A DNA stretch of 64,000 nucleotides. It comes from an uncultured Pseudomonadales bacterium (GTDB taxonomy: Bacteria; Patescibacteriota; Microgenomatia; UBA1400; CAYXSR01). Position 1 is the first letter of the stretch. The number at the start of each line of letters is the position of its first letter. This document shows, piece by piece, positions 3,979-40,552 of the stretch. The position numbers and the translations under genes were made by a program. The DNA is taken from the NCBI GenBank assembly GCA_964467735.1, contig CAYXSR010000001.1, positions 108,839-172,838 of the forward strand, read 5' to 3'. The notes under the pieces were generated by a model. The model was not told where the DNA came from and made no database searches. It was given only the letters and a program-made list of their open reading frames with translations.

Positions 3979-5790
3979 ATGCCATTTTCCCTTTTAAAAG
4001 ATTTAAATAGTCAACAAAGAAAAGCTATTACCTTTAGTAAGGGACCCTTGTCTGTTTTAGCTGGAGCAGGAAGTGGAAAAACAAGAGTTTTAACTTATCG
4101 AGCCGCTTGGTTAATTTTAGAAAAAGGAGTTAATCCAGAAAATTTACTTTTGGTAACATTTACTAATAAAGCAGCTGAAGAAATGAAAAAAAGAATTAAA
4201 AATTTACTTGGTGCTAAATCTTTTCCTCTAACCGCTACTTTTCATTCATTCTGTGCTAAGCTTTTGAGAAAAGAAGGAAAATATATAAATATTCCTCCTT
4301 CTTTTGTAATTTATGATAACCAAGATCAAAAAGACTTAATTAAGCAAATATTAAAGGATCTTGATCTTTCTTCGACTAAATTTAATCCAGGTTTAATCCT
4401 TTATACAATTAGCTCTGCTAAAAATGAATTAATTTCGGCCATTGAATATCCCCAATATGTCCGTGGTTATTTTCAGGAAACTGTTGCTCAAATTTATCTT
4501 CGTTACCAAAGGTTACTAAAAGAGTTCCAAGCTTTAGATTTTGATGATCTTTTGTTTGAATCAGTCAATCTTTTTAAAAAAAATCTAGAAATAGCAAAAA
4601 AATACCAAAATCTTTTCTCTTATATTTTGGTTGATGAATACCAGGATACTAATCATGCCCAATATGAACTAACTAAAATTTTGGCTAAAAAATGGCGTAA
4701 TCTAACTGTAGTAGGTGATGCTAGCCAGTCGATTTATCGTTGGCGTGGTGCTGACTTTCGTAATCTCTCTAAACTTAAAGAAGATTTTCCTGATTTAACT
4801 ATCATTAACTTAGAAAGAAACTACCGCTCTCCTCAAATAATCCTTGATGCTGCTTTTGCCGTGATCAACAAAAATACCGGTCATCCAATTTTAAAACTTT
4901 GGACCGATAAGGAAAGCATAGGTAAAATCAAAGTTTATCAAGCTAAAAACGAGAGAGATGAATCTCTTTTCATTGCAAATAATATTTATCAGATGAAAGA
5001 TAAAAAATTAAGTTTTGCTATTTTATATCGAACTAATGCTCAATCACGACCTATTGAGGAATTACTCTTAAAGCTTGGTATTCCTTATCAATTAATTGGT
5101 GGGGTGCGCTTTTACGAAAGAAAAGAAATTAAAGATTGCCTTGCCTATCTACGCTTATTGGCTAATCCTAAAGATATGAATTCTTATAAAAGACTTGAAA
5201 AGCTTGGTAAACGTCGATTAAAAAAATTCATTGAGTATCAAGAAAAAATTAAAAAGAAGTTAAAAAAAATGACAACCTTAGATATTCTTAATAGTGTTTT
5301 AAAAAAAACAGGCTATCTGGAATTATTTAATGAGAAAAATGAGGAAGATTTAGCTCGTTTGGAAAATATCAAGGAATTAACTTCTGTTGCTTCCGAATTT
5401 CCTAATCTAGATCAGTTTCTGGAAAATGTTGCCCTTGTTCAACAAGAATTCTTGCCAGATAAACAACCAAAAAATAGTCCTGAGAATCAACCAGTGGTTT
5501 TAATGACTCTTCATGCAGCTAAAGGTTTAGAGTTTGATGTTGTTTTTATGATTGGCATGGAAGAAGGGCTTTTTCCCCATTCTCGATCAATGCTGGAAAA
5601 AGAAGAATTAGAAGAAGAACGTCGACTTTGTTATGTGGGTATTACTAGGGCTAAAAAACAACTCTTCTTTACTTATGCCAAAAATCGTCTCTATTTTGGC
5701 TCTCGTAACTACAATCAAATTTCTCGTTTTATTTCTGACTTACCAGAATCTTTACTCGAACTTGAAACCCCTAGCCTTCTTTTTGATTAA
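3979..5790 (+). CDS. UvrD/PcrA-family superfamily-1 DNA helicase (short, 603 aa)
   Basis: Walker A AGAGSGKTRVLTYR, motif II VDEYQDTN, and GDASQSIYRWRGAD. The C-terminal VGITRAKKQLFF motif is also present. Confidence 0.8.
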   Translation: MPFSLLKDLNSQQRKAITFSKGPLSVLAGAGSGKTRVLTYRAAWLILEKGVNPENLLLVTFTNKAAEEMKKRIKNLLGAKSFPLTATFHSFCAKLLRKEGKYINIPPSFVIYDNQDQKDLIKQILKDLDLSSTKFNPGLILYTISSAKNELISAIEYPQYVRGYFQETVAQIYLRYQRLLKEFQALDFDDLLFESVNLFKKNLEIAKKYQNLFSYILVDEYQDTNHAQYELTKILAKKWRNLTVVGDASQSIYRWRGADFRNLSKLKEDFPDLTIINLERNYRSPQIILDAAFAVINKNTGHPILKLWTDKESIGKIKVYQAKNERDESLFIANNIYQMKDKKLSFAILYRTNAQSRPIEELLLKLGIPYQLIGGVRFYERKEIKDCLAYLRLLANPKDMNSYKRLEKLGKRRLKKFIEYQEKIKKKLKKMTTLDILNSVLKKTGYLELFNEKNEEDLARLENIKELTSVASEFPNLDQFLENVALVQQEFLPDKQPKNSPENQPVVLMTLHAAKGLEFDVVFMIGMEEGLFPHSRSMLEKEELEEERRLCYVGITRAKKQLFFTYAKNRLYFGSRNYNQISRFISDLPESLLELETPSLLFD

Positions 5791-6855: not shown

Positions 6856-7731
6856 ATGCTTTCTAATTATCGCCAATTAATTGATGTTCGACAAACAACT
6901 GAATATGCAAAGTTTATGAAAAAAATTGGTTGGAAAATAAAAAAAACAGGTAAAATAAACATTTTTATTAAAAAACTTCCATTTTTACCTTTTTCAGTTA
7001 TAAAAATACTTCGATTTTCTACCCCTAATAAAGAAAAATTTATGACTGATGCTAAAAAAATTAAAAAAGAAAACAGAGCCTTAATATTTAAACTCCATCC
7101 TTTTATAGTCTCAAAATCAGATCAAATAGTTTTTAAAAATTTTAAATCTCAACAAGACAAGAATCCTTTAGTCCCGACCAAAACTATTTGGCTTGATCTT
7201 AATAAAAAAAATAATCAACTTTTGAAACAAATGAAGCAAAAGACCCGTTATAATATTCATTTATCCAAAAGTAAAAAAATTACAATAGAAATTGTTTCTG
7301 GTAATAAAATAAAATCACAATTATTAAATGATTTTTATCAATTATGGAAAAAAAATAAACCATTTAATTGGCTTTTTAAACCTTCCTTTCGGAATCTTCA
7401 AGCGCTAGTTTCTAGCTTTGAAAAAAAGTGTTTTTTAGTTTTAGCATCAAAAAATTCATTAATTGCTGGAGCTCTAATCTTAACATCTAAAAATATGGCC
7501 TTTTATTGGCATAATTGTTCAAACAAAGAAGGAAAAAAGTTGTTTGCTCCTACTTTAGTTATTTGGCAAGCAATTAAAGAGGCTAAACGAAGAAATCTTA
7601 AAATTTTTGATTTTGAAGGAATTTACGATTCTCGATTTCATAAGTTAATGAAAAACTGGCAGGGTTTCAGTAAATTTAAGAAAGGTTTTGGTGGCCAAAA
7701 AATACTTTTCTCCAAACCACTAAAAGTCTAG
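6856..7731 (+). CDS. FemAB-family transferase, shorter tandem paralogue
   Basis: 291 aa. The KTRYNIHLSKSKKITIE segment parallels KTRYNIRLAIKKGVTVQ of the upstream gene. The C-terminal NLKIFDFEGIYD motif corresponds to CKIFDLWGCLG in the paralogue. Confidence 0.55.
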   Translation: MLSNYRQLIDVRQTTEYAKFMKKIGWKIKKTGKINIFIKKLPFLPFSVIKILRFSTPNKEKFMTDAKKIKKENRALIFKLHPFIVSKSDQIVFKNFKSQQDKNPLVPTKTIWLDLNKKNNQLLKQMKQKTRYNIHLSKSKKITIEIVSGNKIKSQLLNDFYQLWKKNKPFNWLFKPSFRNLQALVSSFEKKCFLVLASKNSLIAGALILTSKNMAFYWHNCSNKEGKKLFAPTLVIWQAIKEAKRRNLKIFDFEGIYDSRFHKLMKNWQGFSKFKKGFGGQKILFSKPLKV

Positions 7732-9020
7732 TTTATCAATCTTTTTTTTCTTAAAAGAAGATGATATTTTTTGGCAAACCGATGAGACTCATCACGTAGT
7801 TGTTGGATTAGTCTTAGAAAAACAGAATTCTTCTTTAGTTTTATTTCCTGCCAACCAATAATATTTTCATCTCTAACTTTTGGTTTGATAATGATCTCTT
7901 CTTTTTTAGCTAAACCTAAAATAAGAATTTTCTTAAGCAAATGCCAACTTCTTAAAACATCAAATACTGCACTTACTTGACCTTTCCCGCCATCAACAAT
8001 TATTAATTCTGGGTAAGGCCATTCTTTATGTTTTAGTCTTCTTTGAACTACTTCTCTCATCATTTCTAAATCATCAGGTGTTGTAGAAAAAAGGATTTTA
8101 AATCGGCGATATTGATTCTTATTTGCTGAAAAGTTTTCAAAAACCACCATCGAACCAGTTGCTTCTCGACCATAAAGATTAGAAATGTCATAACATTCTA
8201 TTCTCTTTAAACTTTTTATTCCTGTCAAGAGTTTTTTTGCTTGTTTTAGAATATCTTTATCTCTATCTTTGGGAAGAAGCAAAGATAAACTTTCCTCATC
8301 CAAGGACTGCCAATTCAAAACTACATAATTTATTGCTTCTATCTGTTTTTTAATTTTGTTTGCTTTTTCAAAATCTAATTTATTGCTTGCTTTATCCATT
8401 TCCATTGTTAATTGTCGTATTACTTCACCTATGTCTCCATTTAGAAACTTAATTATCTTTCTAATTGTCTTTCGATATTCACTTTTTGGATAACCAATAC
8501 AGCATCCTGGACAAAGATTAATGTGATAATATAAGCAAGCTCTTTTTTTATTCCAGGTTTTAGAATTACAACTACAATATGGAAAAATTTGGCGGATAAT
8601 TCTTAAAACCCTCCTTACTTCTCCTGCTGAAGGAAAAGGACCAAAATACTTAGCTTTTTTTAACTCTTTTTTACGAGCGGTAAAAATCCGAGGATATTCT
8701 TCATCAGAAATACCAATCATCAAAAAACGCTTATCATCTTTTAATCGAACATTATAAAAAGGTTGATGTTTATTCACTAAAGCTGCCTCTATCAATAATG
8801 CCTCAAATTCAGATCGACAAATCCTAAAATCAATATCTTTAATTTGATCAACCATTTTTTTAGTAAGATATCCCTTGTTATTCTGAAAGTAACTTTTAAC
8901 TCTATTTTTTAGATTAACTGACTTACCAATATAAATAATTTTTCCATCGCTATTTTTAAAAAAATAGATTCCTGGTTTTTGGGGAAACTTATTAATTTTT
9001 TCTTTTAAATTTTTATCCAT
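7728..9020 (-). CDS. uvrC: Excinuclease ABC subunit C (UvrC), short form without the C-terminal (HhH)2 domain
   Basis: GIY-YIG domain GIYFFKNSDGKIIYIGKSVNLKNRVKSY and UVR motif EKANKIKKQIEAINYV. 430 aa, ending after the endonuclease-V-like region. Overlaps uvrA by 8 nt. Confidence 0.85.
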   Translation of the reverse strand: MDKNLKEKINKFPQKPGIYFFKNSDGKIIYIGKSVNLKNRVKSYFQNNKGYLTKKMVDQIKDIDFRICRSEFEALLIEAALVNKHQPFYNVRLKDDKRFLMIGISDEEYPRIFTARKKELKKAKYFGPFPSAGEVRRVLRIIRQIFPYCSCNSKTWNKKRACLYYHINLCPGCCIGYPKSEYRKTIRKIIKFLNGDIGEVIRQLTMEMDKASNKLDFEKANKIKKQIEAINYVVLNWQSLDEESLSLLLPKDRDKDILKQAKKLLTGIKSLKRIECYDISNLYGREATGSMVVFENFSANKNQYRRFKILFSTTPDDLEMMREVVQRRLKHKEWPYPELIIVDGGKGQVSAVFDVLRSWHLLKKILILGLAKKEEIIIKPKVRDENIIGWQEIKLKKNSVFLRLIQQLRDESHRFAKKYHLLLRKKRLIN

Positions 9021-11685
9021 GTTTAAAATATTTACTTAAAAATCTACCAGTATAAGAGTCTTTAGATTTAATTATATCTCCTGGTTTTCCTTGAGCTACG
9101 ATATAACCCCCAGCATTACCACCTTCAGGACCTAAATCAACTATCCAGTCAGCATTTTTAATTACATCCAAATTGTGCTCAATAACCACAACTGAATTCC
9201 CATTATCTACTAGCTTTCTTAAGATTAAAATTAATTTCTTCAAATCATGAAAGTGTAAACCAACAGTCGGTTCATCTAAAATATACAAAGTATTCCCTCT
9301 ACTTGGTTTTACTAATTCTCGAGCTAATTTTAAACGCTGTGATTCCCCACCAGATAAAGTTGGCGATGATTGACCAATTTGAAGATATTCTAAACCAATA
9401 TCCTTTAACTTCTCTAATTTATTTACAATAAAGGAAATAGGTTTAAAAAATTCCAAAGCTTCTTCAATTGTCATTTGTAAAACTTCATAAATATTTTTAC
9501 CATTCCACTCAACCTCTAAGACTTCTTCGATAAATCTTTTTCCATGGCAAACTTCACACTCAACCCAAATGTCTGGTAAAAATTGCATTTCTATTTTAAT
9601 TTCCCCTTGTCCTTGACAAGCTTCACAACGACCGCCTTTATTATTAAAGGAAAAGAAACTTTTATTAAAACCTTTAAATTTTGCTTCTTTTGTTTGAGCA
9701 AACAGGTCTCGAATCTCATTAAAAACTGAAGTATAGGTCGCTGGATTGGAACGAGAAGTTCTTCCAATCGGCGACTGGTCAACCATTAAAACTCTATCTA
9801 AATGCTCTAAACCTGAAATCTTATCAAATTCACCTGGTTTCTTTTCAAATTCTGCATTAAAATACTCTCTTACTGCACGATATAAAGTTTCTTCAATTAA
9901 AGTTGATTTTCCGGAACCAGAAACACCAGAAATACAAACAAAGCTGTTCAAAGGTATTCTAAAATCAATATTTTTTAAATTAAATTGACGACAACCACTA
10001 ATATTTAACCAGGACTGAACTAATTTTTTATTCTTTGGAAAGATAGGAATTTTTTTAACATTTGATAAATACATTCCAGTAAGAGATTTTTTATCATTTA
10101 TGATTTTATTTAAAGTGCCTTGAGCAACTATTTCACCACCCTTCTTACCAGCTAATGGCCCAAAATCAATTATCCAGTCAGCCTCCTTCATTACTTCAAC
10201 ATCATGTTCAATAATAATTGGATTATTACCAATATCACGAAGTCTTTTTAAAGTTTGAATTAATCTTTGGTTATCACGCGGATGTAAACCGACTGTTGGC
10301 TCATCTAAGATATACAAAACACCGGTAAGCCCGGTACCTATCTGAGAGGCTAATCTTATCCGTTGACCTTCACCGGTTGAAAGAGTTCCAGCAGTCCTTG
10401 CTAAATCTAAATAATCTAAACCCACTGCCAAGAGAAATTTTAGTCTTGTTCTTATTTCTTTTAAAATTGGTTTACTTATCTGTTTTTCTTTTTCTGATTT
10501 GATAATTTTTTCAAGCCTTCCAAACCATTCATCTAATTTATCTAAAGACATTAAACTCACTTGATAAATATTTTTATTATCAATAGTGACAGCCAGCGAT
10601 TCTTTTTTTAACCGAGCACCATGACATAAAGAACAAGACTCTTTAATCATTAATTTTTCGATTTCCTTACGAATATATTCAGAACTTGTATTATAATAAG
10701 TTCTCTCTAATCTCAAAGCTCTCCATTCAGGCACTTTACTTCTGTCAATAGTTAATTTTATTCCTAGACCTTTACATTTTTCACAAGCACCAACAGGGGA
10801 ATTAAAACTAAAACTATTTGGTTCAAGCCAAGATATAGAAATGTTGCATTTTGGACAAGCATAATGTTCAGAAAAAAGTTTATCGTGCCATACTTCTGGT
10901 TGATTCGAAAAAGAAAAACTTTTGTCATTAACAAAACTTAAAATCAAAAGTCCATCTGATAACTGAAGCCCTTGGCGAATTGCTTCAAATAAGCGTGAAC
11001 GAATAGATTTAAAATCTTTTAAATTGGAAGAGTTTATAATTAATCTATCTGTAACAACATCAATATTATGTTTATTATTCTTTAGAAGATTAATTTCTTT
11101 TCCCAAATCCATTAAATAATTATCAACCCTTACCAATTCATAGCCTTCTTTAATTAAATTACTAAATAACTTCTCAAAAGTCCCTTTTCTTTCTTTTACT
11201 ACCGGCGATAAAAGATAAATCTTTGCTATTCTTGATTGGCTAATTTCTGTTTTTATTTCTTCTTCTATTTGGTCAACAATTTCCTGAATTGATTGTTGAG
11301 AAATTTCTCGACCACAGGAAGGACAATGTGGATGACCAACCCTGGCAAAAAGCAATCGTAAATAGTCATAAATCTCTGTTACTGTTCCCACTGTTGAACG
11401 AGGATTAGAAGAGATACTTTTTTGATCAATGGCAATACTTGGAGATAAACCCTCGATTAAATCAACATCTGGTCGTCCAGAAGACTGTAAAAACTGTCGA
11501 GCATAAGCAGAAAGGCTTTCCACATATCTTCTCTGTCCTTCTGCATATAAGGTATCAAAAGCCAAAGATGATTTTCCGGAACCAGAAACACCAGTAAAAA
11601 CTACCAATTTATTCTTCGGAATCTCTAAATTGATATTCTTAAGATTATGTTCTCTGGCGCCTTTAATAATTATTTTATCTTTCAT
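9013..11685 (-). CDS. uvrA: Excinuclease ABC subunit A (UvrA)
   Basis: Two ABC modules ([15 protein letters not shown] and [20 protein letters not shown] signatures) and zinc-finger Cys clusters (CPSCG, CPKC...CEKC, CEAC...CEVCHGKR). 890 aa. Confidence 0.95.
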
Positions 11686-11799
11686 AAAATTAATCCTTAA
11701 TTTTTGAGAATAAAAACTCCGCCTCCTGTTAGCAACATATTACTAACATACGGCTGAGTTAATTATAGCAAACAAAGATTTTCTTGTCTTAAAAAGATT

Positions 11800-13794
11800 T
11801 TAATTAGTCTCAATTTCTAATATTTTATCTCTTATTTTTGCTGCTTGTTCAAAATCTAAATTTCTAGCATATTCGCGCATTTCTTTTTCTAGTTTCTTAA
11901 TTAGTTTTTTTCTGTCCTGAGGTGTTAATTGGTTTGGATCAATTTCTTCTTCCTCTTCTATTTCTTTTTCAATCAGCTTTGGTCTTATAGCTTTTTTAAT
12001 TGATTGGGGAGTAATGTTGTTTCTTTTATTATATTCCTGCTGTATTCTCCGTCTTCTTTCTACCTCTGAAATTGCTTGCCTCATTGCTTCACTCTCCTCA
12101 TCGGCATATAAAATCACTTTTCCTTTAACATTTCTAGCCGCCCGCCCCATAATTTGAATTAAACTAGTTTTAGAGCGTAAAAAACCTTGTTTATCTGCCT
12201 CTAAAATCGCTACCAATCCTACTTCTGGTAGGTCCAATCCCTCTCTTAAAAGATTGATTCCTACTAATACATCAAAATTGCCAGATCTTAAATCAGCCAA
12301 AACATCAGTTCTTTTTAGAGTATCAATATCTGAATGAAGGTAGGTAACTTTCAAATCAGTATTGGTTTTACTTGGATCAGATAAATAAGTGGCTAAATCT
12401 TCTGCTAGTCTTTTTGTCAAAGTAATTACCAAACTTCTTTGTCCTTGTTTCTTCTTTTGTTTAATTTGTTCGATTAAGTCTTTCACTTGGTTATCTGCAG
12501 GCAAAATTTTCACTGGTGGGTCTACAAGACCAGTTGGTCTAATAATTTGTTCAACTATTTTTCCATTACTTTTTTGAACCTCCCAATCTCCTGGAGTAGC
12601 CGAAACATAAATCCCTTGGGGAATTCTAGCCAAGATTTCATTAAACTTTAACGGTCGATTATCTAAACAAGAAGGAAGCCGAAAACCAAAATCAATAAGA
12701 TTTTCTTTCCGAGCAAGATCACCATAAAACATCCCTCGTAATTGAGGAATTGTTACATGAGATTCATCAACAACAACCAAAAATTTATCTTTATATTTGT
12801 AATTAAAATAGTCTAGTAAAGAATATGGTGGGTCGCCAGGATTACGACCATCAAAATATCGCGAATAATTTTCAATTCCATTAACATATCCAGTCTCGGC
12901 AATCATTTGTAAATCATAATTAACTCTTTTTTCGATCCTCTGAGCTTCTACTATTTTCCCTTGCTTTTTAAATAGACTTACTTGTCTTCCCTTTTCATCT
13001 TTAATAGTCTTAAAAATATTTCCTAAATCACCGGAAGCAGTTAAAAAATGTTTCGCCGGATAAATAGCGGTTGTCTCTTTTTCTTTTATTCTTTTATTAT
13101 TTAAACTAGCTATTTCAATTTTCTTAATCTTATTATTGTCAAAATAAATTTTAATAATTCTATCATCTGAATAAGGAAGAAAAATATCCAAACGATTTTG
13201 TCGTTGTCTAAAAGTTCCCGGTAAAAAATCAGCTGTTGCTCGCTGGTAGTAAAGTTCCACTAGTCGCTGGCCAACGGAAAACAAATCTTGCCTGTCACCT
13301 TTTTTTAACAGAATCGTTTGTTCTTTATATATTCCTGGGGCGCCAATATTATAAATACAAGAAACTGAAGCAATTACAATATTTCGAGGATAAGCAAAAA
13401 TATCGCTAGTAGCTTGAAGTCTTAACTGTTCAATTAGAGGGTTTATATCTACTTCTTTGGTAATATATGTATCAGATGCTGGAAGATAGGCCTCCGGTTG
13501 ATAATAATCATAATAAGAAACAAAATAAGAAACTGGATTGTTAGGAAAGAATTCTTTTAATTCTTGATAAAGTTGAGCCGCTAAAGTTTTATTGTGAGAA
13601 ATTATTAAAGTTGGTAACTGGCTTTCTTCGATTACCTTAGCAATAGTAAAAGTTTTACCACTGCCAGTAACTCCTAGCAATACTTGGTGTCTTTCTCCTT
13701 CTTCAAGTCCCTTTTTTAAAATTTCAATTGCTCGGGGTTGATCACCTCTTGGTTTAAATTTTGATTTTATTTTAAATTTATCCATACTTACCAA
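11800..13794 (-). CDS. uvrB: Excinuclease ABC subunit B (UvrB)
   Basis: Helicase motifs GVTGSGKT and VVDESHVT, and a C-terminal UVR domain DFEQAAKIRDKILEIE. 664 aa. Overlaps the upstream helicase-nuclease gene by 7 nt. Confidence 0.95.
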   Translation of the reverse strand: MVSMDKFKIKSKFKPRGDQPRAIEILKKGLEEGERHQVLLGVTGSGKTFTIAKVIEESQLPTLIISHNKTLAAQLYQELKEFFPNNPVSYFVSYYDYYQPEAYLPASDTYITKEVDINPLIEQLRLQATSDIFAYPRNIVIASVSCIYNIGAPGIYKEQTILLKKGDRQDLFSVGQRLVELYYQRATADFLPGTFRQRQNRLDIFLPYSDDRIIKIYFDNNKIKKIEIASLNNKRIKEKETTAIYPAKHFLTASGDLGNIFKTIKDEKGRQVSLFKKQGKIVEAQRIEKRVNYDLQMIAETGYVNGIENYSRYFDGRNPGDPPYSLLDYFNYKYKDKFLVVVDESHVTIPQLRGMFYGDLARKENLIDFGFRLPSCLDNRPLKFNEILARIPQGIYVSATPGDWEVQKSNGKIVEQIIRPTGLVDPPVKILPADNQVKDLIEQIKQKKKQGQRSLVITLTKRLAEDLATYLSDPSKTNTDLKVTYLHSDIDTLKRTDVLADLRSGNFDVLVGINLLREGLDLPEVGLVAILEADKQGFLRSKTSLIQIMGRAARNVKGKVILYADEESEAMRQAISEVERRRRIQQEYNKRNNITPQSIKKAIRPKLIEKEIEEEEEIDPNQLTPQDRKKLIKKLEKEMREYARNLDFEQAAKIRDKILEIETN

Positions 13795-16682
13795 ACAGGA
13801 CAGATTATTTTAAATGGACAGAAGTCGCAAAATGGTCCAGGAGTAGGATTAAAATTAGATTCTTTAATTTCTTCTGCTTTTTTAACTATTTCTTTTTTTG
13901 TTTGTTTTATTTGATCTTCTACCCTTTGAGTAGAGATTTTTTCTTGAGTTTCAAAAAAATAGAACGATAGTATTATGTTTTCTGGTTTTTGATTATAAAG
14001 TCCTGGGTCGGTAGCAGCCATCGCATAAAGAGTCATTTGTAAATCTTTATCAACTTCTTTCTTGCTCGCTAAACGACCAGTTTTATAGTCAATAATTTCT
14101 ATTTTTCCATCACTAAGCTTATCAATACGATCAATTCTACCACCTACTTTCAAACTTGGAGAAATTTTTAAAGTAAATGTTTGTTCTAAAGCAATCGGAT
14201 TATCTTCTTTCTTATAAGTTTTATTAAAAAATTCTATTAAAATCTTTTCCGCTCGTTGATACATTCTTTGTTCATGAGCTTTAGAATTATAACCTTCTTT
14301 TTGCCAATATTTTTTTAGTAATCCTATTAATTTATCTTTACTAACTGTAATACCGTCTCTAACTTGTTGATAAAAATCTTTTAAAACATTATGGATAGAG
14401 GTTCCAAAAGCCGCCGCCGCAAAAGTAGGTACGGGAATTTGTAAAAAATATTTATATTTATATTGCAACGGACACATTTTAAAAGTTTCTATTTGGGAAT
14501 AAGAAAGGAAATTTACTGGATAGATTATGTTTTGATTAATTAAAGTAGATTTTGTTTGTTTTACTGGTTGAAAATCAAAAATAGAAAGTTGACTTTCTTC
14601 TATATTTTTAATTTGGAGAGAATTTTTTATTTGTTCTATACCTAAAGTTTCATAAACAAAAGGAGAAATCTTTTTAATTCTTTTTGCTTCTCCGTAATAT
14701 TTAGATGCGGTAAGAAAAAGGAGATCTTTTGCTCTGGTCATCCCTACATAAAATAAACGCCGTTCTTCCTGCTCGTGAGAATCTCCTTCTGGTAAAACCT
14801 CTTCAATTAAATCATCTGGTATTGGAATTTGATCTTTCCTATCTCTTGTTGGAAAACGATCAGAAACTAAATTAACAATAAAGACTATTGGGAATTCCAA
14901 ACCTTTAGAGCTATGAATGGTTAAAATATTTACTTTATTTTCTTCTGTCCAATCATTATCTGAAGCTAAAGGAGACTCACCCATTTCTATTTTTAAATTA
15001 ATCCAATCAACTATTGCCTCAATACTATTATCTTCATGGTCCACTTCATAACTTTTTAATTTATTAAAAAATTTAGTAATATTTTCTGTTTTTTGTTGTT
15101 CCTTTTCTGTTTTTGGTTCTGCTAATTGCTGAAGTAGGCCAGAATCTTGAAGAAAATAGTAACTTATTTGACCACCAGTTTCTGTAGCAATTAATTTTAA
15201 ATGGCGATGAATCATGTCAACGAGCTTTTTAATTTTTTCTTTATTTTCTGAAGAAATAAAAAGTTTATCAGCTTGTTCGGCGGCCTCAAAAAAAGAAATA
15301 TTCATTTTCTTACTAAAATTCTTCAAAGCAGCGATATCCCGACTAGAAATATCAAAAACTGGTAACGATAAAACTCTAAAAAAAGAGACATTATCTTCAA
15401 AGTTATATAAAACTCTAAGATAAGCTATTAGATCTTTTACTTCATCTTGTCGGAAAAGTTTTCCTGGTCCTAAAAATTGAAAAGGAATACCATTTCTCAG
15501 AAAAGAGCTAACAAATGGTTCGGCATGATTGTTAGCTCTAACCAGAATAGCAATTTCTCCATACTTATATTGGCTTTTTTGATTAACAAGTTTTTTAATT
15601 TCTTTCACTACCGTATCGGCTTCATCTTCAACCCTATTACGAAATAAAAATTTAATTTCTTCTCCCTTAATCCGTCGATTAGATACTAATTTTTTATCGA
15701 TATTCTCTTTTACTTCCAAACGGTCAGGATTATTATTTTGAATCAATTTATATGCTTTATTTAGAATTTCTTGGGTTGAACGATAATTCTTTGTCAAGCT
15801 TATAATTTTAGTTTTGGGGTATTCCTGTTTAAATTGTAAAACATTAGAAATTGCTGCTCCTCGCCACTTATAGATAGATTGATCATCATCAGCAACAACA
15901 GTAAGATTGGCTTTTGTCCCAGCTAAAAGTATAACTAATTTATTTTGAGCAACATTTGTATCTTGAAACTCATCGACCAAAATATATTTGAATTTTTGTT
16001 GATATTTTTTCAAAATATTCTTTCTTTTTCTAAATAAATTTAGAGTATGAGTAATTAAATCGGCGAAGTCCATTAATCCTTCTTTTACTTTTAGTTCTTG
16101 GTACTTTCGATAGGCTTTAACCAACTCTAAATCTTTTTTAATCTCCTCTTTTTCTTTACTAGACTTTTTTTGTTGCTTCTCTAACCAATCAGAATATTTT
16201 TTTGGAGAAATGTCTTCATCTCTCAAACGATTGAAGTGAACTAAAAGGCCATTTAAAAATCTTGTCGGATTACCGGCTGGGCGATAATAATCAAGTTCAA
16301 AATCAAAAAGGTGCTTTTTCAAAAATAAAAGTGTCTCTGCTTCGGTCATCAAGGAATAATGAGGATCTAAACCAATATTTAATGCCTCATCGCGCAAAAC
16401 TCGATCACAAAATGCATGGAAAGTAGAAATCCACATTTGAAAACAACCCAAAGGCATAATTTCATCCACTCTTTGCTCCATCTCCAAAGCTGCTTTCTCG
16501 GTAAAAGTCAACGCTAAAATTTCTGACGGTTTGGCAATTTTTGAAGAAATTAAATGTTTTATTCTTTCGGTAACTACAGTGGTTTTTCCTGTACCAGCAC
16601 CAGCAATGATTAATAGTGGCCCTCGACCATACTTTATTGCTTGAAGCTGTTGTTGATTCAAAACCTTATTATCATCAACCAT
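13788..16682 (-). CDS. Fused UvrD-like SF1 helicase and C-terminal PD-(D/E)xK Cas4/AddB-type nuclease with a 4-Cys FeS-cluster signature
   Basis: N-terminal Walker A AGAGTGKTTVVTER, VDEFQDTN, and LFYVGMTRAK. C-terminal nuclease motifs GRIDRID, IEIIDYKTG and QMTLYAMAA. Cysteines are placed as FKMCPLQY near the start of the nuclease domain and CDFCPFKIIC at the extreme C-terminus (Cas4/AddB iron-sulfur arrangement). Confidence 0.8.
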   Translation of the reverse strand: MVDDNKVLNQQQLQAIKYGRGPLLIIAGAGTGKTTVVTERIKHLISSKIAKPSEILALTFTEKAALEMEQRVDEIMPLGCFQMWISTFHAFCDRVLRDEALNIGLDPHYSLMTEAETLLFLKKHLFDFELDYYRPAGNPTRFLNGLLVHFNRLRDEDISPKKYSDWLEKQQKKSSKEKEEIKKDLELVKAYRKYQELKVKEGLMDFADLITHTLNLFRKRKNILKKYQQKFKYILVDEFQDTNVAQNKLVILLAGTKANLTVVADDDQSIYKWRGAAISNVLQFKQEYPKTKIISLTKNYRSTQEILNKAYKLIQNNNPDRLEVKENIDKKLVSNRRIKGEEIKFLFRNRVEDEADTVVKEIKKLVNQKSQYKYGEIAILVRANNHAEPFVSSFLRNGIPFQFLGPGKLFRQDEVKDLIAYLRVLYNFEDNVSFFRVLSLPVFDISSRDIAALKNFSKKMNISFFEAAEQADKLFISSENKEKIKKLVDMIHRHLKLIATETGGQISYYFLQDSGLLQQLAEPKTEKEQQKTENITKFFNKLKSYEVDHEDNSIEAIVDWINLKIEMGESPLASDNDWTEENKVNILTIHSSKGLEFPIVFIVNLVSDRFPTRDRKDQIPIPDDLIEEVLPEGDSHEQEERRLFYVGMTRAKDLLFLTASKYYGEAKRIKKISPFVYETLGIEQIKNSLQIKNIEESQLSIFDFQPVKQTKSTLINQNIIYPVNFLSYSQIETFKMCPLQYKYKYFLQIPVPTFAAAAFGTSIHNVLKDFYQQVRDGITVSKDKLIGLLKKYWQKEGYNSKAHEQRMYQRAEKILIEFFNKTYKKEDNPIALEQTFTLKISPSLKVGGRIDRIDKLSDGKIEIIDYKTGRLASKKEVDKDLQMTLYAMAATDPGLYNQKPENIILSFYFFETQEKISTQRVEDQIKQTKKEIVKKAEEIKESNFNPTPGPFCDFCPFKIICPVW

Positions 16683-16683
16683 C

Positions 16684-17751
16684 TTAAGTTTCTTTTTTTA
16701 ATTGCTTAAATTCTTTTTCCGTATCTGCCTCTGATAGGGCTTGAGTAGAAGAAAGTTTTTGACCTAATAAAGAAAAGTTTTGTAGAACGTTAGAAAATTG
16801 ATTATAAGCATTATTAAGATGTTTGCCTAAAACTTGTAAAACTCCTTCTGTTTTTTCATAGTCTTTTTGGATTGCTCTTAAAAGTCGGAAGACTTGGCGC
16901 GAACGAGTTTCGATTTTCTTTCCTTCAAATGATAAAAGAATCATTTGAAGATGAGCATATAATGTTGTTGGCGAAACAGGATAAACACGATAGTGACGAG
17001 CAAGATCAGTAATATCAGAGATATTAACAATCTCATAATATACTGGCTCTGAAGGTATATACATTAGAGCAAAATCCATTGTTCCTTCTTCTGGTAGAAT
17101 ATATTTCTTCGAAATATCTTTTATGTGTTTTCTTACATCAGAAACAAAAACTTTTCTTATTTTATCTCTTTCTCCTTTTGTTTCCGCTTTAATCATCCTT
17201 TGAAAATTTTCCATTGGAAATTTAGAATCAATTGACAAAATACCAGCATCTGTTTTTAAAGCCGCATCTACTTTTTCTCCACTTTTAAAACTATATTGAA
17301 GATGAAAACTATTTTTGGGAAACATCTGGGAAATTAAATCTTTTAAAACTTCTTCACCAATATTTCCTCTAAGTTTGGGACTTTTTAAAAATTCTTGAAG
17401 ATCTTTCATTGATCGACCGATTTCACTCATCTGACCGACTTCTTTAGCAACTTTAGAAATATAATGAGCGGCATTATCTAAACGCTCATTCATTGCTTTA
17501 GTTGATTGATGAAGAGTATCAGAAATATTTTTATTAGTTAAATTGAGAACGTCCTGTAAGGTCCTTGATTGGCTTTGAAGTCCTCTTTGTAAATTATTAG
17601 TCCCTTTTTGTAAAGTCTCAATTACCCTTAAGAGGTTTTCATCAGTTTTATTATCTTTTACCAATTGTGTTAACTTACGACTAATAAACCATGTAAAAAT
17701 AGCTAAAGCAGAAATTATTAAAGCAACAATAAGATAAATTTCATTAGTCAT
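16684..17751 (-). CDS. rmuC: DNA recombination protein RmuC-like
   Basis: N-terminal TM segment, a long coiled-coil, and a C-terminal RmuC-type region. Its stop lies 2 nt upstream of the helicase-nuclease start, so the two are in an operon. Confidence 0.7.
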   Translation of the reverse strand: MTNEIYLIVALIISALAIFTWFISRKLTQLVKDNKTDENLLRVIETLQKGTNNLQRGLQSQSRTLQDVLNLTNKNISDTLHQSTKAMNERLDNAAHYISKVAKEVGQMSEIGRSMKDLQEFLKSPKLRGNIGEEVLKDLISQMFPKNSFHLQYSFKSGEKVDAALKTDAGILSIDSKFPMENFQRMIKAETKGERDKIRKVFVSDVRKHIKDISKKYILPEEGTMDFALMYIPSEPVYYEIVNISDITDLARHYRVYPVSPTTLYAHLQMILLSFEGKKIETRSRQVFRLLRAIQKDYEKTEGVLQVLGKHLNNAYNQFSNVLQNFSLLGQKLSSTQALSEADTEKEFKQLKKET

Positions 17752-17777
17752 ATAATTTATTATACAATGAAAAAGAG

Positions 17778-18113
17778 ATGGCTAAAAGAAAACAAAAGAA
17801 TTTTTTCTTAACTCTTATTTTTTTAATCTTGTTTTGGCTAATCCAAATCTTTATCATTTTCTTTATAGAACCAGAGACTATCAGAGACCTTCCTTTTCCT
17901 GGTTCTTATTTTTTATTTTTTCTTAATCTATTTTTAGCTCTTTTTTTCACTTTTGCTCTTCTGTTTGCCAATTCAAGAACCGGCTTTTTGTTCTCCTTAG
18001 GAATAACAATTTTTTTATTCCTAAGAGTTCATCAACTAGGTAATATTTTAAATTTAATATTAATTGTCGGAATTATTACTGTTTTAGAAATTTACTTCCG
18101 ACGGAGAAATTGA
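17778..18113 (+). CDS. Small integral membrane protein (3-4 TM), hypothetical
   Basis: 111-aa hydrophobic ORF, divergent from rmuC. No recognisable family. Confidence 0.4.
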   Translation: MAKRKQKNFFLTLIFLILFWLIQIFIIFFIEPETIRDLPFPGSYFLFFLNLFLALFFTFALLFANSRTGFLFSLGITIFLFLRVHQLGNILNLILIVGIITVLEIYFRRRN

Positions 18114-18165
18114 TATAGTAAAATTATCTACTTTAAATAATTAAACTGCCAAGAAAGGATATCAA

Positions 18166-18540
18166 ATGCAAATTTCAAAATCAAGACTCTCTAGAACAAT
18201 AAAAGAGCAAATTTTAATTAACCTTTTTCAGGTTTTTACTGATCTAAATACAATCGAAGATGTTAAAAGTTTTATGGAATCTTTTTATTCAAAAGATGAA
18301 ATAATTACGGCGGCTAAACGTTTAGCAGTTGCTTGTTCTTTAGAAAAAGGAGACTCTTACGAAGAAATCAAAAATATGTTCCGGGTCTCTAGCGCTACTA
18401 TTGCAAATGTCGATAAAATAAAAAATCAAAACAAGAAAGGTTTTAATATTGCCTTTGAAAGACTTGAAGCAGAACATTGGGCGGGTGAATTGGCCAAGAA
18501 AATCTCTAACACTGTTGGTAAAATAATAAAGAAGGATTAA
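18166..18540 (+). CDS. TrpR-like YerC/YecD-family DNA-binding protein
   Basis: About 120 aa with the HTH signature GDSYEEIKNMFRVSSATIANV (G-x-SY-x-EI...S-x-ATI-x-RV pattern). Immediately upstream of metG. Confidence 0.55.
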   Translation: MQISKSRLSRTIKEQILINLFQVFTDLNTIEDVKSFMESFYSKDEIITAAKRLAVACSLEKGDSYEEIKNMFRVSSATIANVDKIKNQNKKGFNIAFERLEAEHWAGELAKKISNTVGKIIKKD

Positions 18541-18543
18541 TTT

Positions 18544-19998
18544 ATGGCTGAAAAAAAGTTTTATATTACTACTGCTATTCCATATGTGAACGCTGCTCCT
18601 CATCTTGGTTTTGCTCTTGAGATTATTCAAGCTGATGTTGTCGCTCGTTATCACCGACTTTTAGGAGAGAATGTTTTCTTTTTAGCAGGTACTGATGAAA
18701 ACGCTTTAAAAAATGTCCAAGCTGCTGAAAAAGAAGGTATTAGTCCGAAACAATTAGTTGATAAATATTCAGCTCGATTTAAAGCTTTAAAACAGGCTCT
18801 TAATCTCTCATTTGATGATTTCATTAGGACTACCGAAAAAAGACATTTTAAAGGATCACAGAAATTCTGGAAGGCTTGTCAAAAAGATATTTATAAAAAA
18901 ATTTACAAAGGTTGGTATTGTGTTGGCTGTGAAGAATTTAAAACTAAAAAGGACCTAATCAATGGTACATGTCCTGAACATCCTAATAAAAATCTAGAGC
19001 TAATTGAAGAAGAAAATTATTTTTTTAGACTATCTAAATATCAAAAACAACTAGAAAAACTTATTAAAAAAGATAAACTTAAAATTGTTCCCCTAGAGAG
19101 AAAAAATGAAATTCTTCAGTTTATCAAAACCGGACTAAAGGATTTTTCTATTTCCCGATCTTTTGAAAGAGCTAAGGGCTGGGGAATTCCTGTACCAAAT
19201 GATGAACAACAAATTATTTATGTTTGGTTTGATGCTTTAATCAATTATGTCACTGCTTTAGGTTATGCCAGTAATAGTAAATTATTCAAAAAATTTTGGC
19301 TAGAAAACAACAATATTCTTCATTGTATTGGTAAAGGAATTATCCGTTTTCATGCTGTTTACTGGCCAGCAATGTTAATGTCGGCTGGATTACCCCTCCC
19401 TAAAGAAGAATTGATACATGGGTACGTTACAATTAATGGTCAAAAAATATCTAAATCTTTAGGTAATGTCATTGATCCTTTTGAATTAGTTAAAAAATAT
19501 GGCACTGATGCTGTTCGTTATTATCTTTTAAAGGAAATTCCTTCCACTAAAGATGGCGATTTTACAATTGCTCATTTTGAAGAAGTTTACAATGCTGATT
19601 TGGCTAATGGTTTAGGAAACTTAGTCCAAAGAGTAGCTGTTTTAGCAGAAAAGGCTGGATTGAAAGGGTTTAAGAAACAAAAAGATATTATTGATCAAAT
19701 TGATATTGCTAATTTTATGGATAATTTTGATTTTCATCAGGTGTTAATTTATATTTGGGGTTACATGTCTGGATTAGATAGATATATCAACAAAGAACGG
19801 CCTTGGGAAAAATCTGGAAATGATGCTATAAAAATTTTATCTAAAATTATTGTTGCCGATGAAGGCTGTCGAGGAATTTTAAATATCGCTAGTCTGATTT
19901 CTCCCTTTTTACCAGAAACTGCTCAAAGAATTGAAGAAATATTTACTGCTCAAAGAATTGAAGCACCAAAAAAACCTCTTTTTCCTCGCTTACACTAA
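18544..19998 (+). CDS. metG: Methionyl-tRNA synthetase (short form)
   Basis: Class-I motifs PHLGFALE (HIGH-type) and KISKS (KMSKS). Zn knuckle CVGCEEF...CPEHPN. 484 aa. Confidence 0.9.
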   Translation: MAEKKFYITTAIPYVNAAPHLGFALEIIQADVVARYHRLLGENVFFLAGTDENALKNVQAAEKEGISPKQLVDKYSARFKALKQALNLSFDDFIRTTEKRHFKGSQKFWKACQKDIYKKIYKGWYCVGCEEFKTKKDLINGTCPEHPNKNLELIEEENYFFRLSKYQKQLEKLIKKDKLKIVPLERKNEILQFIKTGLKDFSISRSFERAKGWGIPVPNDEQQIIYVWFDALINYVTALGYASNSKLFKKFWLENNNILHCIGKGIIRFHAVYWPAMLMSAGLPLPKEELIHGYVTINGQKISKSLGNVIDPFELVKKYGTDAVRYYLLKEIPSTKDGDFTIAHFEEVYNADLANGLGNLVQRVAVLAEKAGLKGFKKQKDIIDQIDIANFMDNFDFHQVLIYIWGYMSGLDRYINKERPWEKSGNDAIKILSKIIVADEGCRGILNIASLISPFLPETAQRIEEIFTAQRIEAPKKPLFPRLH

Positions 19999-29671: not shown

Positions 29672-30428
29672 AACTGCGATTCTTTATTCTCTACCTCCGT
29701 GTGAACTAGGATTTTGTGGCCCTAAACAAAAACAAGCTAAAAAAATTCTTCGGCAATTTATTCTGGGTAAAAAAGTAAATATTGCCAAAATCAAAAAGGC
29801 TTTAAAAAATTTTGAAGCTGCTTTTCCATATTATCAATTAATCGCTAAAGCCAATAATATTAAAGATGTTTTTAGTAAAAAAGTCGTTGAAGCTTATTGG
29901 CTAGGTAATGGTCTTTTAAAAAAAGTGAAATATTCAGATATTATTCATCTTATCCTCAGCCAGTTCTCCCAACCAGGTCTTTTAACTTTAAAAGAAGCCC
30001 AAAAACGAATAAAAAAAATCCCAAAGAGGGCTAAAGCTCATCATGTCTTTCATGTTTTTATTCTTGGTCCAATTGCTGGCAGAATTAATTTCACTCCTGA
30101 ACTTTTGGATTTATGTCGGGTTAGTTGGGGACAAATTATAAAAATAGAAAAAAACTCAAAATCTTTAAAAGTGAAAGTAAAAACTAAAACACTAATCATT
30201 CAGAACGGAAAATATGCCTTAGGGACAAAGATAATTAAACAAATTGAAGGAAATAAACACATTTTTAAAAACTTAAAGATTGGCCAGTGGATTAGTTTTC
30301 ATTGGAACCAAGTCTGTGATGTTTTAAATAACCAAAAAGTAAATGCGCTAAAATATTATACAAAAATTCACTTAATGAACAGCACAAGTAATACAGGGGT
30401 CAAAACTTCTAATAAGAATCTCAATTAA
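29652..30428 (+). CDS. Hypothetical protein with conserved Cys/His motifs (CELGFCGP, HHVFHVF), function unknown
   Basis: 258-aa ORF in the hypC-to-hydrogenase interval. Its 3' end overlaps the convergent hydrogenase large-subunit gene by 57 nt. Confidence 0.35.
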   Translation: MSIVGIKTAILYSLPPCELGFCGPKQKQAKKILRQFILGKKVNIAKIKKALKNFEAAFPYYQLIAKANNIKDVFSKKVVEAYWLGNGLLKKVKYSDIIHLILSQFSQPGLLTLKEAQKRIKKIPKRAKAHHVFHVFILGPIAGRINFTPELLDLCRVSWGQIIKIEKNSKSLKVKVKTKTLIIQNGKYALGTKIIKQIEGNKHIFKNLKIGQWISFHWNQVCDVLNNQKVNALKYYTKIHLMNSTSNTGVKTSNKNLN

Positions 30429-31619
30429 ATTATGTTGTTCTTCTATTGGCCGATTTTTATTTTGAGTTAGTAAACTAGTTGCCGCCTCTTCTATTGCTGC
30501 TAAATTTTGAGCTGTTGGAGTAAGAATATTACAATAAACTACTTTTCCATCTTTGACTTCAAAAGAATAATAAAGCGTTCCTCTTGGTGCCTCAATCGCT
30601 GCGCTTCCAACTCCTGATCTAAACGGTATCTCTACTTGAACTTCTTCTTGGGGACTTCTGTTAAACCAGTAAAGCAAATTTAATGCCTCCTCAAGAAAAT
30701 GAAAAATTTCTATTGCTTGAGCTACATTGATAAAAAATGGGTTTTTCTCTGGTAAAACAAGTGCCATATCTTTTAAAACTTTATTAGTTCTCCTATGAAG
30801 CCTATTTTTAAATTGATTAAGTCTGGAAAGTGCCCCGACTACAAAAGGTTTACTGGTAAACGAAGAATATTTTACTGGTGACCCATATTTTACCTGTTCA
30901 ATAATCAATTTTTGATAGTCGCCTGGGTCTGCCTTAAAACCAGTTAAACAACTAATTTGGCCATCATAATATGAATAATCCTTGTCGTTGTCTAAACAGA
31001 TCTGGGATGGATTAAAATTGCTAATCTTAGGGTATTCTAAGTGGCTAAAAATGCTAATTAGCTCCTCAGCACCAGAGAAAACCTGTTCGATATCTAGAAT
31101 TAAGGAAGATAGCCTGTCTCTATCTGGTTCTTGAGTAAACCCTCCCACCATCGGAGTAATCGGATGGACAACTCTGCCTGTAATTATTTCTAGAAGTCTG
31201 TCGCAGATTTTCTTTAATTTTAAAACCATATGGTATTCCACTGGATAAAGTTTAATTATCTCAATTCCTCTTTCTTTTTCAGGGGTAAAATCAGGCAAAA
31301 CAAGAAAAAAAAGGTGAATAAGGTGGCTGTTGATAATTTGACAGCAAAGCATTAATTTTCTTAAGTTGATAATTGTCTCATTTACTTTTACCCCTAAAGC
31401 GTTTTCTAAGGCTTTTATTGATCCTAAACTGTGAGCAACAGGGCAAATTCCACAGATTCTACAGGCAATAAAGGGAGCTTCCTGAAAATCCCTACCTCTT
31501 ACTAGCTGTTCAAACAGTCTTTCTCCCTCACTTACAACCAAATGAGCCTTATGATTAGCCATATCTAGCTTAAGATGTCCATGACCTTCGATTCTGGCAA
31601 TTAGATTAGATGTAGGCAT
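30372..31619 (-). CDS. [NiFe] hydrogenase large (catalytic) subunit, small cytoplasmic group-3-like type
   Basis: N-terminal Ni-Fe ligand motif RICGICPVAH. C-terminal ligand motif DPCITCAVH forms the last nine residues, i.e. there is no C-terminal maturation peptide. 415 aa. Overlaps the small-subunit gene by 14 nt. Confidence 0.9.
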   Translation of the reverse strand: MPTSNLIARIEGHGHLKLDMANHKAHLVVSEGERLFEQLVRGRDFQEAPFIACRICGICPVAHSLGSIKALENALGVKVNETIINLRKLMLCCQIINSHLIHLFFLVLPDFTPEKERGIEIIKLYPVEYHMVLKLKKICDRLLEIITGRVVHPITPMVGGFTQEPDRDRLSSLILDIEQVFSGAEELISIFSHLEYPKISNFNPSQICLDNDKDYSYYDGQISCLTGFKADPGDYQKLIIEQVKYGSPVKYSSFTSKPFVVGALSRLNQFKNRLHRRTNKVLKDMALVLPEKNPFFINVAQAIEIFHFLEEALNLLYWFNRSPQEEVQVEIPFRSGVGSAAIEAPRGTLYYSFEVKDGKVVYCNILTPTAQNLAAIEEAATSLLTQNKNRPIEEQHNLIEILIRSFDPCITCAVH

Positions 31620-32337
31620 TGAAAGAATTAATTAATTTATCTAGCTCTTCTTCTGGTAAAAAAGACAGTGTTTTCTTAATCATTTCTCGAGTAATTCCCT
31701 GTTTTAATCCCCAACATCCCCAACAGTATCTACCTGATTCGACACAAACCGCTCCACAACCAGCAAAAGTAAATACACCTAAACATTTCTTTTTCTGACG
31801 AACTAAACATCGTGAAGAATTAAATGGTCCCCGAGGACATTCAGTACAGACAGAAGTTTTTTTCTCTGGAGGAATTTTATCTTTTAAAAGATAAATTAAA
31901 GCCTCTTTTATTTGTTTAGGATTAGCTGGACAACCTCTAATAAAATAATCTACTTTCACATAACAATGGATTGGTTTTACTTCAAAGGCTCCCAATTTAT
32001 ACATTTGGTTATAGCTTTTATTCTTTGCTTCTTCCCTTGAAGATTGTTGGTTGAGGATTGATTGAATACCTCCTAAAGTAGCACAACTTCCCAAAGCTAC
32101 TAAGATTTTTGACTGTTGACGAATTTTTTTAATCCTTTGAATATCTTGACTATTGGTAATAACTCCTTCAACAATACTTATATCAAAGGGACCTTCAGTT
32201 TTAAAATCTGATCCCAAACGAAAGTTTACTAACTCATTGTCAGCGATTAAATCCATTAAAAATGTCCCTAAACCTAATAATTCAACCTCGCAGCCCTCAC
32301 AGTCAGTAAAGTCAAAAATAGCAATTTTTTTACCCAT
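31606..32337 (-). CDS. [NiFe] hydrogenase small (FeS) subunit, cytoplasmic, with no Tat signal
   Basis: Proximal-cluster cysteines DCEGCE, GSCA and GCP, plus a Cys-rich C-terminal third (CTECPRGP, CLGVFTFAGCGAVC, CWGCWG). No RRxFxK signal. 243 aa. Confidence 0.8.
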   Translation of the reverse strand: MGKKIAIFDFTDCEGCEVELLGLGTFLMDLIADNELVNFRLGSDFKTEGPFDISIVEGVITNSQDIQRIKKIRQQSKILVALGSCATLGGIQSILNQQSSREEAKNKSYNQMYKLGAFEVKPIHCYVKVDYFIRGCPANPKQIKEALIYLLKDKIPPEKKTSVCTECPRGPFNSSRCLVRQKKKCLGVFTFAGCGAVCVESGRYCWGCWGLKQGITREMIKKTLSFLPEEELDKLINSFNAYI

Positions 32338-40490: not shown

Positions 40491-40552
40491 CTTTGATTAA
40501 TTAAATTAATTATATCTTTCATCTCTCAATATTTCTTGATAAAATTAAAACA

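Follow-up and report, generated by a model that had tools for sequence, protein, structure and literature searches.

A single-chain UvrD-type helicase with a C-terminal Cas4-like nuclease domain in the rmuC neighbourhood of Microgenomates-type Patescibacteria

We examined a 64,000-nucleotide stretch of DNA, deposited as an uncultured Pseudomonadales bacterium (GTDB lineage Patescibacteriota; Microgenomatia; UBA1400; CAYXSR01) under assembly GCA_964467735.1 (contig CAYXSR010000001.1, positions 108,839 to 172,838), which is referred to here as the window. On its minus strand (13788..16682) we identified a gene for a 964-amino-acid (aa) protein, in which a UvrD/PcrA-type helicase of superfamily 1A (SF1A) is followed by a PD-(D/E)xK nuclease domain with a predicted iron-sulfur (Fe-S) cluster. 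Here we refer to this helicase-nuclease gene, and to its product, as HelNuc. With moderate confidence, we favour a housekeeping role for HelNuc, as a stand-alone ATP-dependent helicase-nuclease for recombination repair or DNA-end processing. The architecture itself is already described, since in 2017 Hudaiberdiev et al. found Cas4-like nucleases fused to UvrD-like helicases, from many bacteria and from mesophilic archaea, to form the largest branch of pfam12705 (PMC5704561); HelNuc is an uncharacterised member.

Domain organization and conservation of the active sites

The HelNuc open reading frame (ORF) begins with ATG, its stop codon lies within the above coordinates, and it was identified from the ORF list and by Pfam. 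The helicase core (aa 8-661; 14700..16661, minus strand) matched UvrD-helicase at aa 8-289 (E 1.4e-77) and UvrD_C at aa 294-661 (E 6.5e-63), with motifs I, II, III, V and VI intact as judged from Pfam, the homologue alignment and the fold match. It is followed by a flexible linker of roughly 55 aa (aa about 662-725; 14508..14699, minus strand), partly disordered in the model, and then by the C-terminal nuclease domain (aa 726-964; 13791..14507, minus strand). The latter was recognised from its invariant residues, its fold and a match to PDDEXK_1 (PF12705) at aa 726-962 (E 2.1e-42; 146 bits against a cut-off of 22).

A first-pass annotation of the window, made from the letters and an ORF list, had reported this 964-aa ORF together with a set of motifs, every one of which was found. 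These are GAGTGKT (aa 28-34), DEFQDTN (aa 237-243) and VGMTRAK (aa 646-652) in the helicase, and GRIDRID (aa 848-854), IIDYKTG (aa 863-869) and QMTLYAMAA (aa 882-890) in the nuclease, in addition to four cysteines, namely C737 and the three of CDFCPFKIIC at aa 952-961 (C-x2-C-x5-C; C952, C955 and C961). Of the checks that it had proposed, the profile search matched UvrD-helicase, UvrD_C and PDDEXK_1, the catalytic residues of both helicase and nuclease being intact, and structure prediction gave the nuclease domain alone a RecB fold with a predicted local distance difference test score (pLDDT) of 92.8. Pfam, alignment and fold therefore agree with its description of one polypeptide in which an SF1 motor and a RecB-fold nuclease with four cysteines, of the AddB/AdnA/Cas4 class, both look intact.

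Across 64 aligned full-length HelNuc homologues (59-83% identity), the invariant helicase residues were those of Walker A, D237/E238/Q240/D241 and, in motifs III, V and VI respectively, R274/G275, K593-E596 and T649/R650. All four cysteines were likewise invariant, as were E833, D851, D865/Y866/K867 and Q882/Y886 (QxxxY) of the nuclease; an absence of the catalytic D/E/K residues, named in the first pass as a possible objection, is thus not the case for E833, D851, D865 and K867. The aromatic residue of motif III, which is the ratchet pawl in AdnB and RecB (PMC13000450), is W273 in HelNuc and W or F in its relatives. A looser regular-expression census of 59 full-length representatives (50% clustering) recovered each motif in 76-97% of them. 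Because the motifs are kept across homologues, both active sites look conserved and functional.

Inteins were also observed in this family. In the HelNuc homologues P0046, P0094 and P0118, helicase motif III (DDDQSI/YKWRGA) is interrupted at residue ~270 by an intein of ~360 aa, and the plain UvrD paralogue of one relative is likewise intein-bearing (L001, 15995-19054).

The helicase core and a second helicase in the window

On the NCBIfam models, HelNuc scored 503 bits for PcrA, 422 for Rep, 417 for UvrD, 203 for AddA and 147 for RecB. A sequence search of the PDB with its helicase gave 327 bits for PcrA (1pjr), followed by UvrD (293), AdnB (153), AddA (97) and RecB (44). The full-length model, built with AlphaFold, had a mean pLDDT of 81 and a predicted template modelling score (pTM) of 0.53, and within the linker pLDDT fell below 50 at aa 691-700, 706-712 and 714-718. 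Its top fold in Foldseek was UvrD (2is6, E 5e-40), then PcrA and Rep (E about 1e-39), and after these it matched AddA, AdnA, AddB, AdnB and RecB along the whole length. When the whole chain was superposed, AdnA and AddB fitted better, with a root mean square deviation of about 12 A (more than 1000 columns) compared with 28-29 A for AddA and RecB; as evidence for an AdnA/AddB-like geometry this is weak because of the pTM of 0.53.

An identification of HelNuc as the PcrA/UvrD orthologue was ruled out, since its 503 bits compare with an equivalog cut-off of 911 and a paralogue within the same window is the better match. This paralogue (3979..5790, plus strand), overlooked in the first pass, is a nuclease-less UvrD/PcrA-type helicase of 603 aa, detected by Pfam and by phmmer (E 6.7e-76 against HelNuc), which lies ~8 kb from HelNuc and belongs to the conserved synteny block described below. 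It scored 705 bits on the PcrA model, against 503 for HelNuc, and grouped with PcrA/UvrD at 99% bootstrap; judging from these comparisons it is the closer PcrA/UvrD equivalent. For this reason, the UvrD step of excision repair is more plausibly assigned to the paralogue than to HelNuc.

In a neighbour-joining tree of 641 helicase columns (numpy bootstrap, 300 replicates), the HelNuc helicases of Patescibacteria formed a clade at 99% bootstrap. With a small taxon sampling and long branches, this clade was sister to canonical PcrA/UvrD at 58% support, and all UvrD-Cas4 fusions were grouped together in 2 of the 300 bootstraps.

The nuclease domain

By sequence, the nuclease domain matched AdnA best (E 2.7e-4) and ACE1 at E 3e-3, whereas on family models the scores were 60 bits for addB_alphas (aa 754-939 of HelNuc) and 35.5 bits for Cas4. 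When modelled alone, its best fold was AdnA (7sjr_A, E 2.2e-11, template modelling score, TM, 0.69), next to which came ACE1 (9iac/9iab, E about 1e-10, TM 0.67) and AddB (4cei_B, E 1.9e-7), while Cas4, EXO5, RecE, AddA and Dna2 ranked behind these. Since AdnA, ACE1 and AddB rank ahead as folds, the domain is predicted to belong to the Fe-S 'iron staple' class, and not to the cluster-free class of RecB, AddA and AdnB. A CRISPR Cas4 identity was ruled out, with 35.5 bits against a cut-off of 65 and no cas genes seen in the window scans.

The best matches to the nuclease-domain profile, none of them from the window, were helicase-less proteins (P0241 to P0245) with 2-5 tandem, complete Cas4-like Fe-S nuclease domains. 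P0241 (1297 aa) has five PDDEXK_1 domains, each with four cysteines and a D...DxK site. We know of no described example of such a tandem multi-Cas4-domain architecture.

Distribution of the family

At least 120 database clusters, at 54-83% identity, share the architecture of HelNuc; their names are generic ('ATP-dependent helicase', 'PcrA') and their sources are Beckwithbacteria, Shapirobacteria or Patescibacteria. A profile search of 1.84 billion representatives retrieved 2068 clusters (50% identity) at E <= 1e-30. When one genome per species was scanned, at least 559 genomes were found to hold relatives of the nuclease domain, and the best 80 of these were all Microgenomates-type metagenome-assembled genomes (Gottesman-, Roizman-, Levy-, Woese- and Shapirobacteria, and CPR3). 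When homologues were sought with only the nuclease domain, the matches were for the most part gene fragments on short contigs, which were of little use for architecture. On viral contigs, no family-level match to HelNuc was found, only distant Cas4-like nucleases at 21-35% identity.

Gene neighbourhood of HelNuc

Upstream of HelNuc, and also on the minus strand, lies rmuC (16684..17751; Pfam RmuC, E 9e-52), which encodes a 355-aa protein with an N-terminal membrane helix. The two genes are 1 nt apart (TAA-g-ATG), and not 2 nt as first claimed. Downstream of HelNuc, we identified uvrB (11800..13785, minus strand; 661 aa from its ATG start) as a lineage-specific neighbour. The 7-nt overlap at first ascribed to this junction requires an upstream TTG start; the ATG, which is the called uvrB start in an 83%-identical relative (661 aa), lies 2 nt past the HelNuc stop (TAA-gt-ATG), without overlap. 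Downstream of uvrB are uvrA (9013-11685, minus strand) and uvrC (7728-9020, minus strand), whose translations were assigned to UvrA and UvrC by visual inspection; uvrA next to uvrB was confirmed by Pfam in the 83%-identical relative only. Promoter and terminator scans of 7000-18600 gave sites no commoner than in shuffled sequence.

To place this arrangement among relatives, six-frame ORFs of 80 related loci (L004-L083) were searched with the window's own proteins. The fusion was intact in all 78 loci that hold the full gene. Of the 64 loci with enough upstream sequence, 42 have rmuC upstream of HelNuc in the same orientation, directly adjacent in 17, and two FemAB genes, the second UvrD and LytR followed HelNuc in about 30 of 58. 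TatD, MetRS, a YerC/YecD TrpR-like gene and a small membrane protein lie 5' of rmuC in the conserved block, whose order reads TatD-MetRS-YerC/YecD-membrane protein-RmuC-HelNuc-FemAB-FemAB-UvrD-LytR. In Roizmanbacteria-type loci without RmuC, the neighbours of HelNuc were EF-Tu, glycosyltransferases and unconserved hypothetical genes, and the genes upstream of HelNuc resembled neither RmuC nor one another. HelNuc is vertically inherited within this housekeeping synteny block of Microgenomates-type Patescibacteria.

The YerC/YecD-family gene of the window (18166-18540, plus strand; 44.1 bits against a cut-off of 42.2) stands in the block near rmuC and HelNuc. In Staphylococcus aureus, a gene of the same family is found just upstream of pcrB-pcrA-ligA, and the gene near HelNuc may be what is left of a former synteny with pcrA.

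On the other hand, no uvrA, uvrB or uvrC was detected within 10 kb of HelNuc in any of the 78 related loci, including one with a protein that scores like a 68%-identical relative, and a 61%-identical relative, whose gene lies on a contig of 864 kb, likewise has no uvr genes near HelNuc. The 83%-identical relative alone also has uvrB and uvrA as neighbours. Because the uvr neighbours are missing from the loci of wider relatives, uvrB-uvrA-uvrC seems to have been inserted recently between HelNuc and the FemAB genes, in this genus-level lineage only, and it is in this lineage only that UvrD, UvrC, UvrA, UvrB, HelNuc and RmuC lie within about 14 kb. The adjacency to uvrBAC is a local rearrangement and not a functional signature; the first-pass description of a gene inside the uvr operon thus holds locally and no further.

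The same annotation had suggested that HelNuc is a repair nuclease coupled to nucleotide excision repair (NER) and co-transcribed with uvrBAC. The local order agrees with this, as rmuC, HelNuc, uvrB, uvrA and uvrC are on one strand with 1-2 nt gaps at the HelNuc junctions and the order is the same in the 83%-identical relative. However, the conserved neighbour is rmuC, and the plain paralogue is available for the excision-repair helicase step, which weakens the link between HelNuc and NER. Together with the distribution of the uvr neighbours, this makes the NER coupling, in our opinion, very unlikely.

Proposed role and mechanism

RmuC is a putative PD-(D/E)xK nuclease. Its conserved operon with HelNuc suggests a part in the control of recombination or in the metabolism of DNA ends rather than in excision repair, and we propose that HelNuc would process DNA ends or branched intermediates for recombination repair. 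As expected from family knowledge, the motor would track 3'-to-5' on one strand and unwind the duplex. At a duplex end or a fork, the helicase would feed a single strand to the nuclease, which, like that of AdnA and ACE1, would accept single-stranded DNA only, threading it through a narrow Fe-S nuclease channel for cutting. With an AdnA/AddB-like geometry, the displaced 5' strand would be cut and a 3' tail left for RecA; if it is RecB-like, the tracked 3' strand would be cut instead, and a homodimer could do both.

An adjacent paralogous helicase-nuclease that could serve as an AddB/AdnA-like partner was found neither in the window nor in the 78 related loci. Because there is no gene for such a subunit next to it, HelNuc may act as a monomer or as a homodimer, and often perhaps together with the presumably co-transcribed, membrane-anchored RmuC. 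The Pfam and family scans of the window proteins also detected no recBCD- or addAB-like gene, in line with the first pass. In the most far-reaching form of our proposal, HelNuc would be the only double-strand-break end-resection machine of Microgenomates-type Patescibacteria, working as a homodimer with one protomer in the AdnB/AddA role and the other in the AdnA/AddB role, representing the ancestral state of the AddAB and AdnAB heterodimers before duplication and having RmuC as its dedicated partner. We regard this form as improbable.

Some points weigh against the recombination-repair role. The inter-domain geometry of the HelNuc model is of low confidence (pTM 0.53). In RecB, AddA and AdnB, the C-terminal nuclease is tethered to the active motor and takes the tracked 3' strand, not the 5' strand. 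Moreover, more distant UvrD-Cas4 fusions adjoin type III restriction-modification genes (PMC5704561), and a role against foreign DNA is conceivable for this reason.

HelNuc would then be a defence enzyme that unwinds and degrades invading linear DNA. Such a role was proposed for the UvrD-Cas4 fusions, which were linked to type III restriction-modification and Dcm/Vsr loci (PMC5704561), and we found the fusions of Vibrio and Priestia plasmids directly upstream of type III mod/res genes. In addition, ACE1, a partner of Argonaute in defence, is among the closest stand-alone relatives of the HelNuc nuclease domain. However, in the 78 related loci, where the housekeeping synteny is conserved, we found no restriction-modification, CRISPR or Argonaute neighbours among the identified genes, and no type III restriction-modification or Dcm/Vsr neighbours were seen. 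PADLOC returned only generic UvrD-helicase matches, which scored higher for the plain paralogue, with no specific match, and the family was not matched on viral contigs. The helicase of HelNuc is also closer to PcrA/UvrD than to the plasmid fusions, and only 2 of 300 bootstraps group all fusions together. A defence role for HelNuc therefore seems unlikely.

It could also be argued that HelNuc is associated with replication, as a PcrA-like accessory helicase with a Dna2-like nuclease for flaps or stalled forks. Its helicase is nearest to PcrA/UvrD, Dna2 is among the fold matches of the nuclease, and the nearby YerC/YecD TrpR-like gene recalls the one beside pcrA in S. aureus. We consider this doubtful, since the plain paralogue is the better PcrA match, Dna2 and Bad have an SF1B motor and the opposite domain order, and the linkage to rmuC favours recombination.

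Patescibacteria account for a large part of bacterial diversity, and to our knowledge their DNA repair has never been studied by experiment; nothing relevant was found in the literature on end resection or DNA repair in this group. HelNuc, conserved and very widespread yet annotated merely as 'ATP-dependent helicase/PcrA', is an obvious candidate for DNA-end processing in Patescibacteria. The pairing of rmuC with HelNuc across Microgenomates also offers a testable functional lead for the poorly understood RmuC. Should HelNuc act on its own, no simpler bacterial enzyme of the AddAB/AdnAB motor-nuclease type would be known, and it would be a useful model for the evolution of the heterodimers.

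Other genes in the window

Two further gene groups were observed. At 30372-32337 (minus strand), in a small, low-GC genome of the Patescibacteria type, both the large and the small subunit of a [NiFe]-hydrogenase-like enzyme are encoded (NiFeSe_Hases, Oxidored_q6). At 38283-43782, two tandem class A penicillin-binding proteins (transglycosylase and transpeptidase) are followed by a gene of the beta-lactamase family on the opposite strand.

Comparison with known systems

AddAB and AdnAB had been described in the first pass as having their activities split over two polypeptides, which is inaccurate. AddA, AdnA, AdnB and RecB each already carry a helicase and a nuclease in one chain (PMC13000450), and the split is between the active motor, on AddA and AdnB, and the FeS nuclease, on AddB and AdnA, where the 5' strand is threaded and cut through the Fe-S channel (PMC13000450, PMC12094033). 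HelNuc is distinctive, as far as its sequence indicates, in carrying the active motor together with the Fe-S nuclease on one chain.

HelNuc resembles AdnAB in its order of domains, a UvrD-like SF1A motor and then, at the C-terminus, a nuclease of the RecB fold, with the nuclease matching AdnA best and the helicase matching the AdnB motor at 153 bits. On the other hand, AdnAB is a heterodimer of adjacent paralogues, whereas HelNuc is a single chain with no adjacent paralogue and its helicase is far closer to PcrA/UvrD (327 bits). Orthology to AdnA or AdnB was considered and rejected on family-model scores; AdnA/AdnB references from a Nonomuraea record were not used, since this region has no annotation there and breaks up into numerous overlapping ORFs. 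AddAB combines the same two activities, with AddB as a fold match (E 1.9e-7), but the helicase domain of AddB is degenerate while the motor of HelNuc looks active, and HelNuc lacks an addB-like partner. An AddA or AddB identity was ruled out by scores of 203 against 708 bits (addA_Gpos), 160 against 861 (addA_alphas) and 60 against 487 (addB_alphas), and a RecB identity by 147 against 696 bits, with no recC or recD in the window.

Dna2 and the bacterial Bad also unite an Fe-S RecB-fold nuclease and an SF1 helicase in a single chain (PMC7430649), and Dna2 is among the fold matches of the HelNuc nuclease domain. However, their nuclease is N-terminal and their motor is of the SF1B (5'-3') type, an arrangement not homologous to that of HelNuc. 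The HelNuc nuclease resembles Cas4 and ACE1 in its fold, its D-DxK site and its 1+3 pattern of cysteines, but these two are stand-alone proteins with no helicase, Cas4 working with Cas1-Cas2 and ACE1 with Argonaute. PcrA, UvrD and Rep gave the best sequence and fold matches to aa 8-661 and have all helicase motifs in common with HelNuc, in which the C-terminal region is replaced by the nuclease.

The closest architecture is that of the UvrD-Cas4 fusions (PMC5704561), with a UvrD-like SF1 helicase and a C-terminal, four-cysteine Cas4-like domain of pfam12705, to which HelNuc is identical in domain layout. The full-length identity of HelNuc to plasmid and archaeal fusions is 24-29%. The HelNuc clade differs from these fusions in its housekeeping block with rmuC and in a helicase that groups nearer to canonical PcrA/UvrD, with weak support (58%), and HelNuc retains the D...DxK site, which some plasmid fusions do not have. 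The plasmid fusions of Roseovarius, Aminobacter, Leptolyngbya and Abditibacteriota (L087, L088, L092 and L093) keep the four cysteines and have apparently lost D...DxK. The Roseovarius and Aminobacter loci have a sigma-like helix-turn-helix gene upstream and a ThiF-family gene downstream, and that of Aminobacter also has an MPN-family gene. Thus, with respect to the described fusions, our finding is the correct domain annotation of a known architecture rather than a new kind of system, and what it adds is the housekeeping context of HelNuc, its linkage to rmuC and not to uvr, and its breadth across Patescibacteria.

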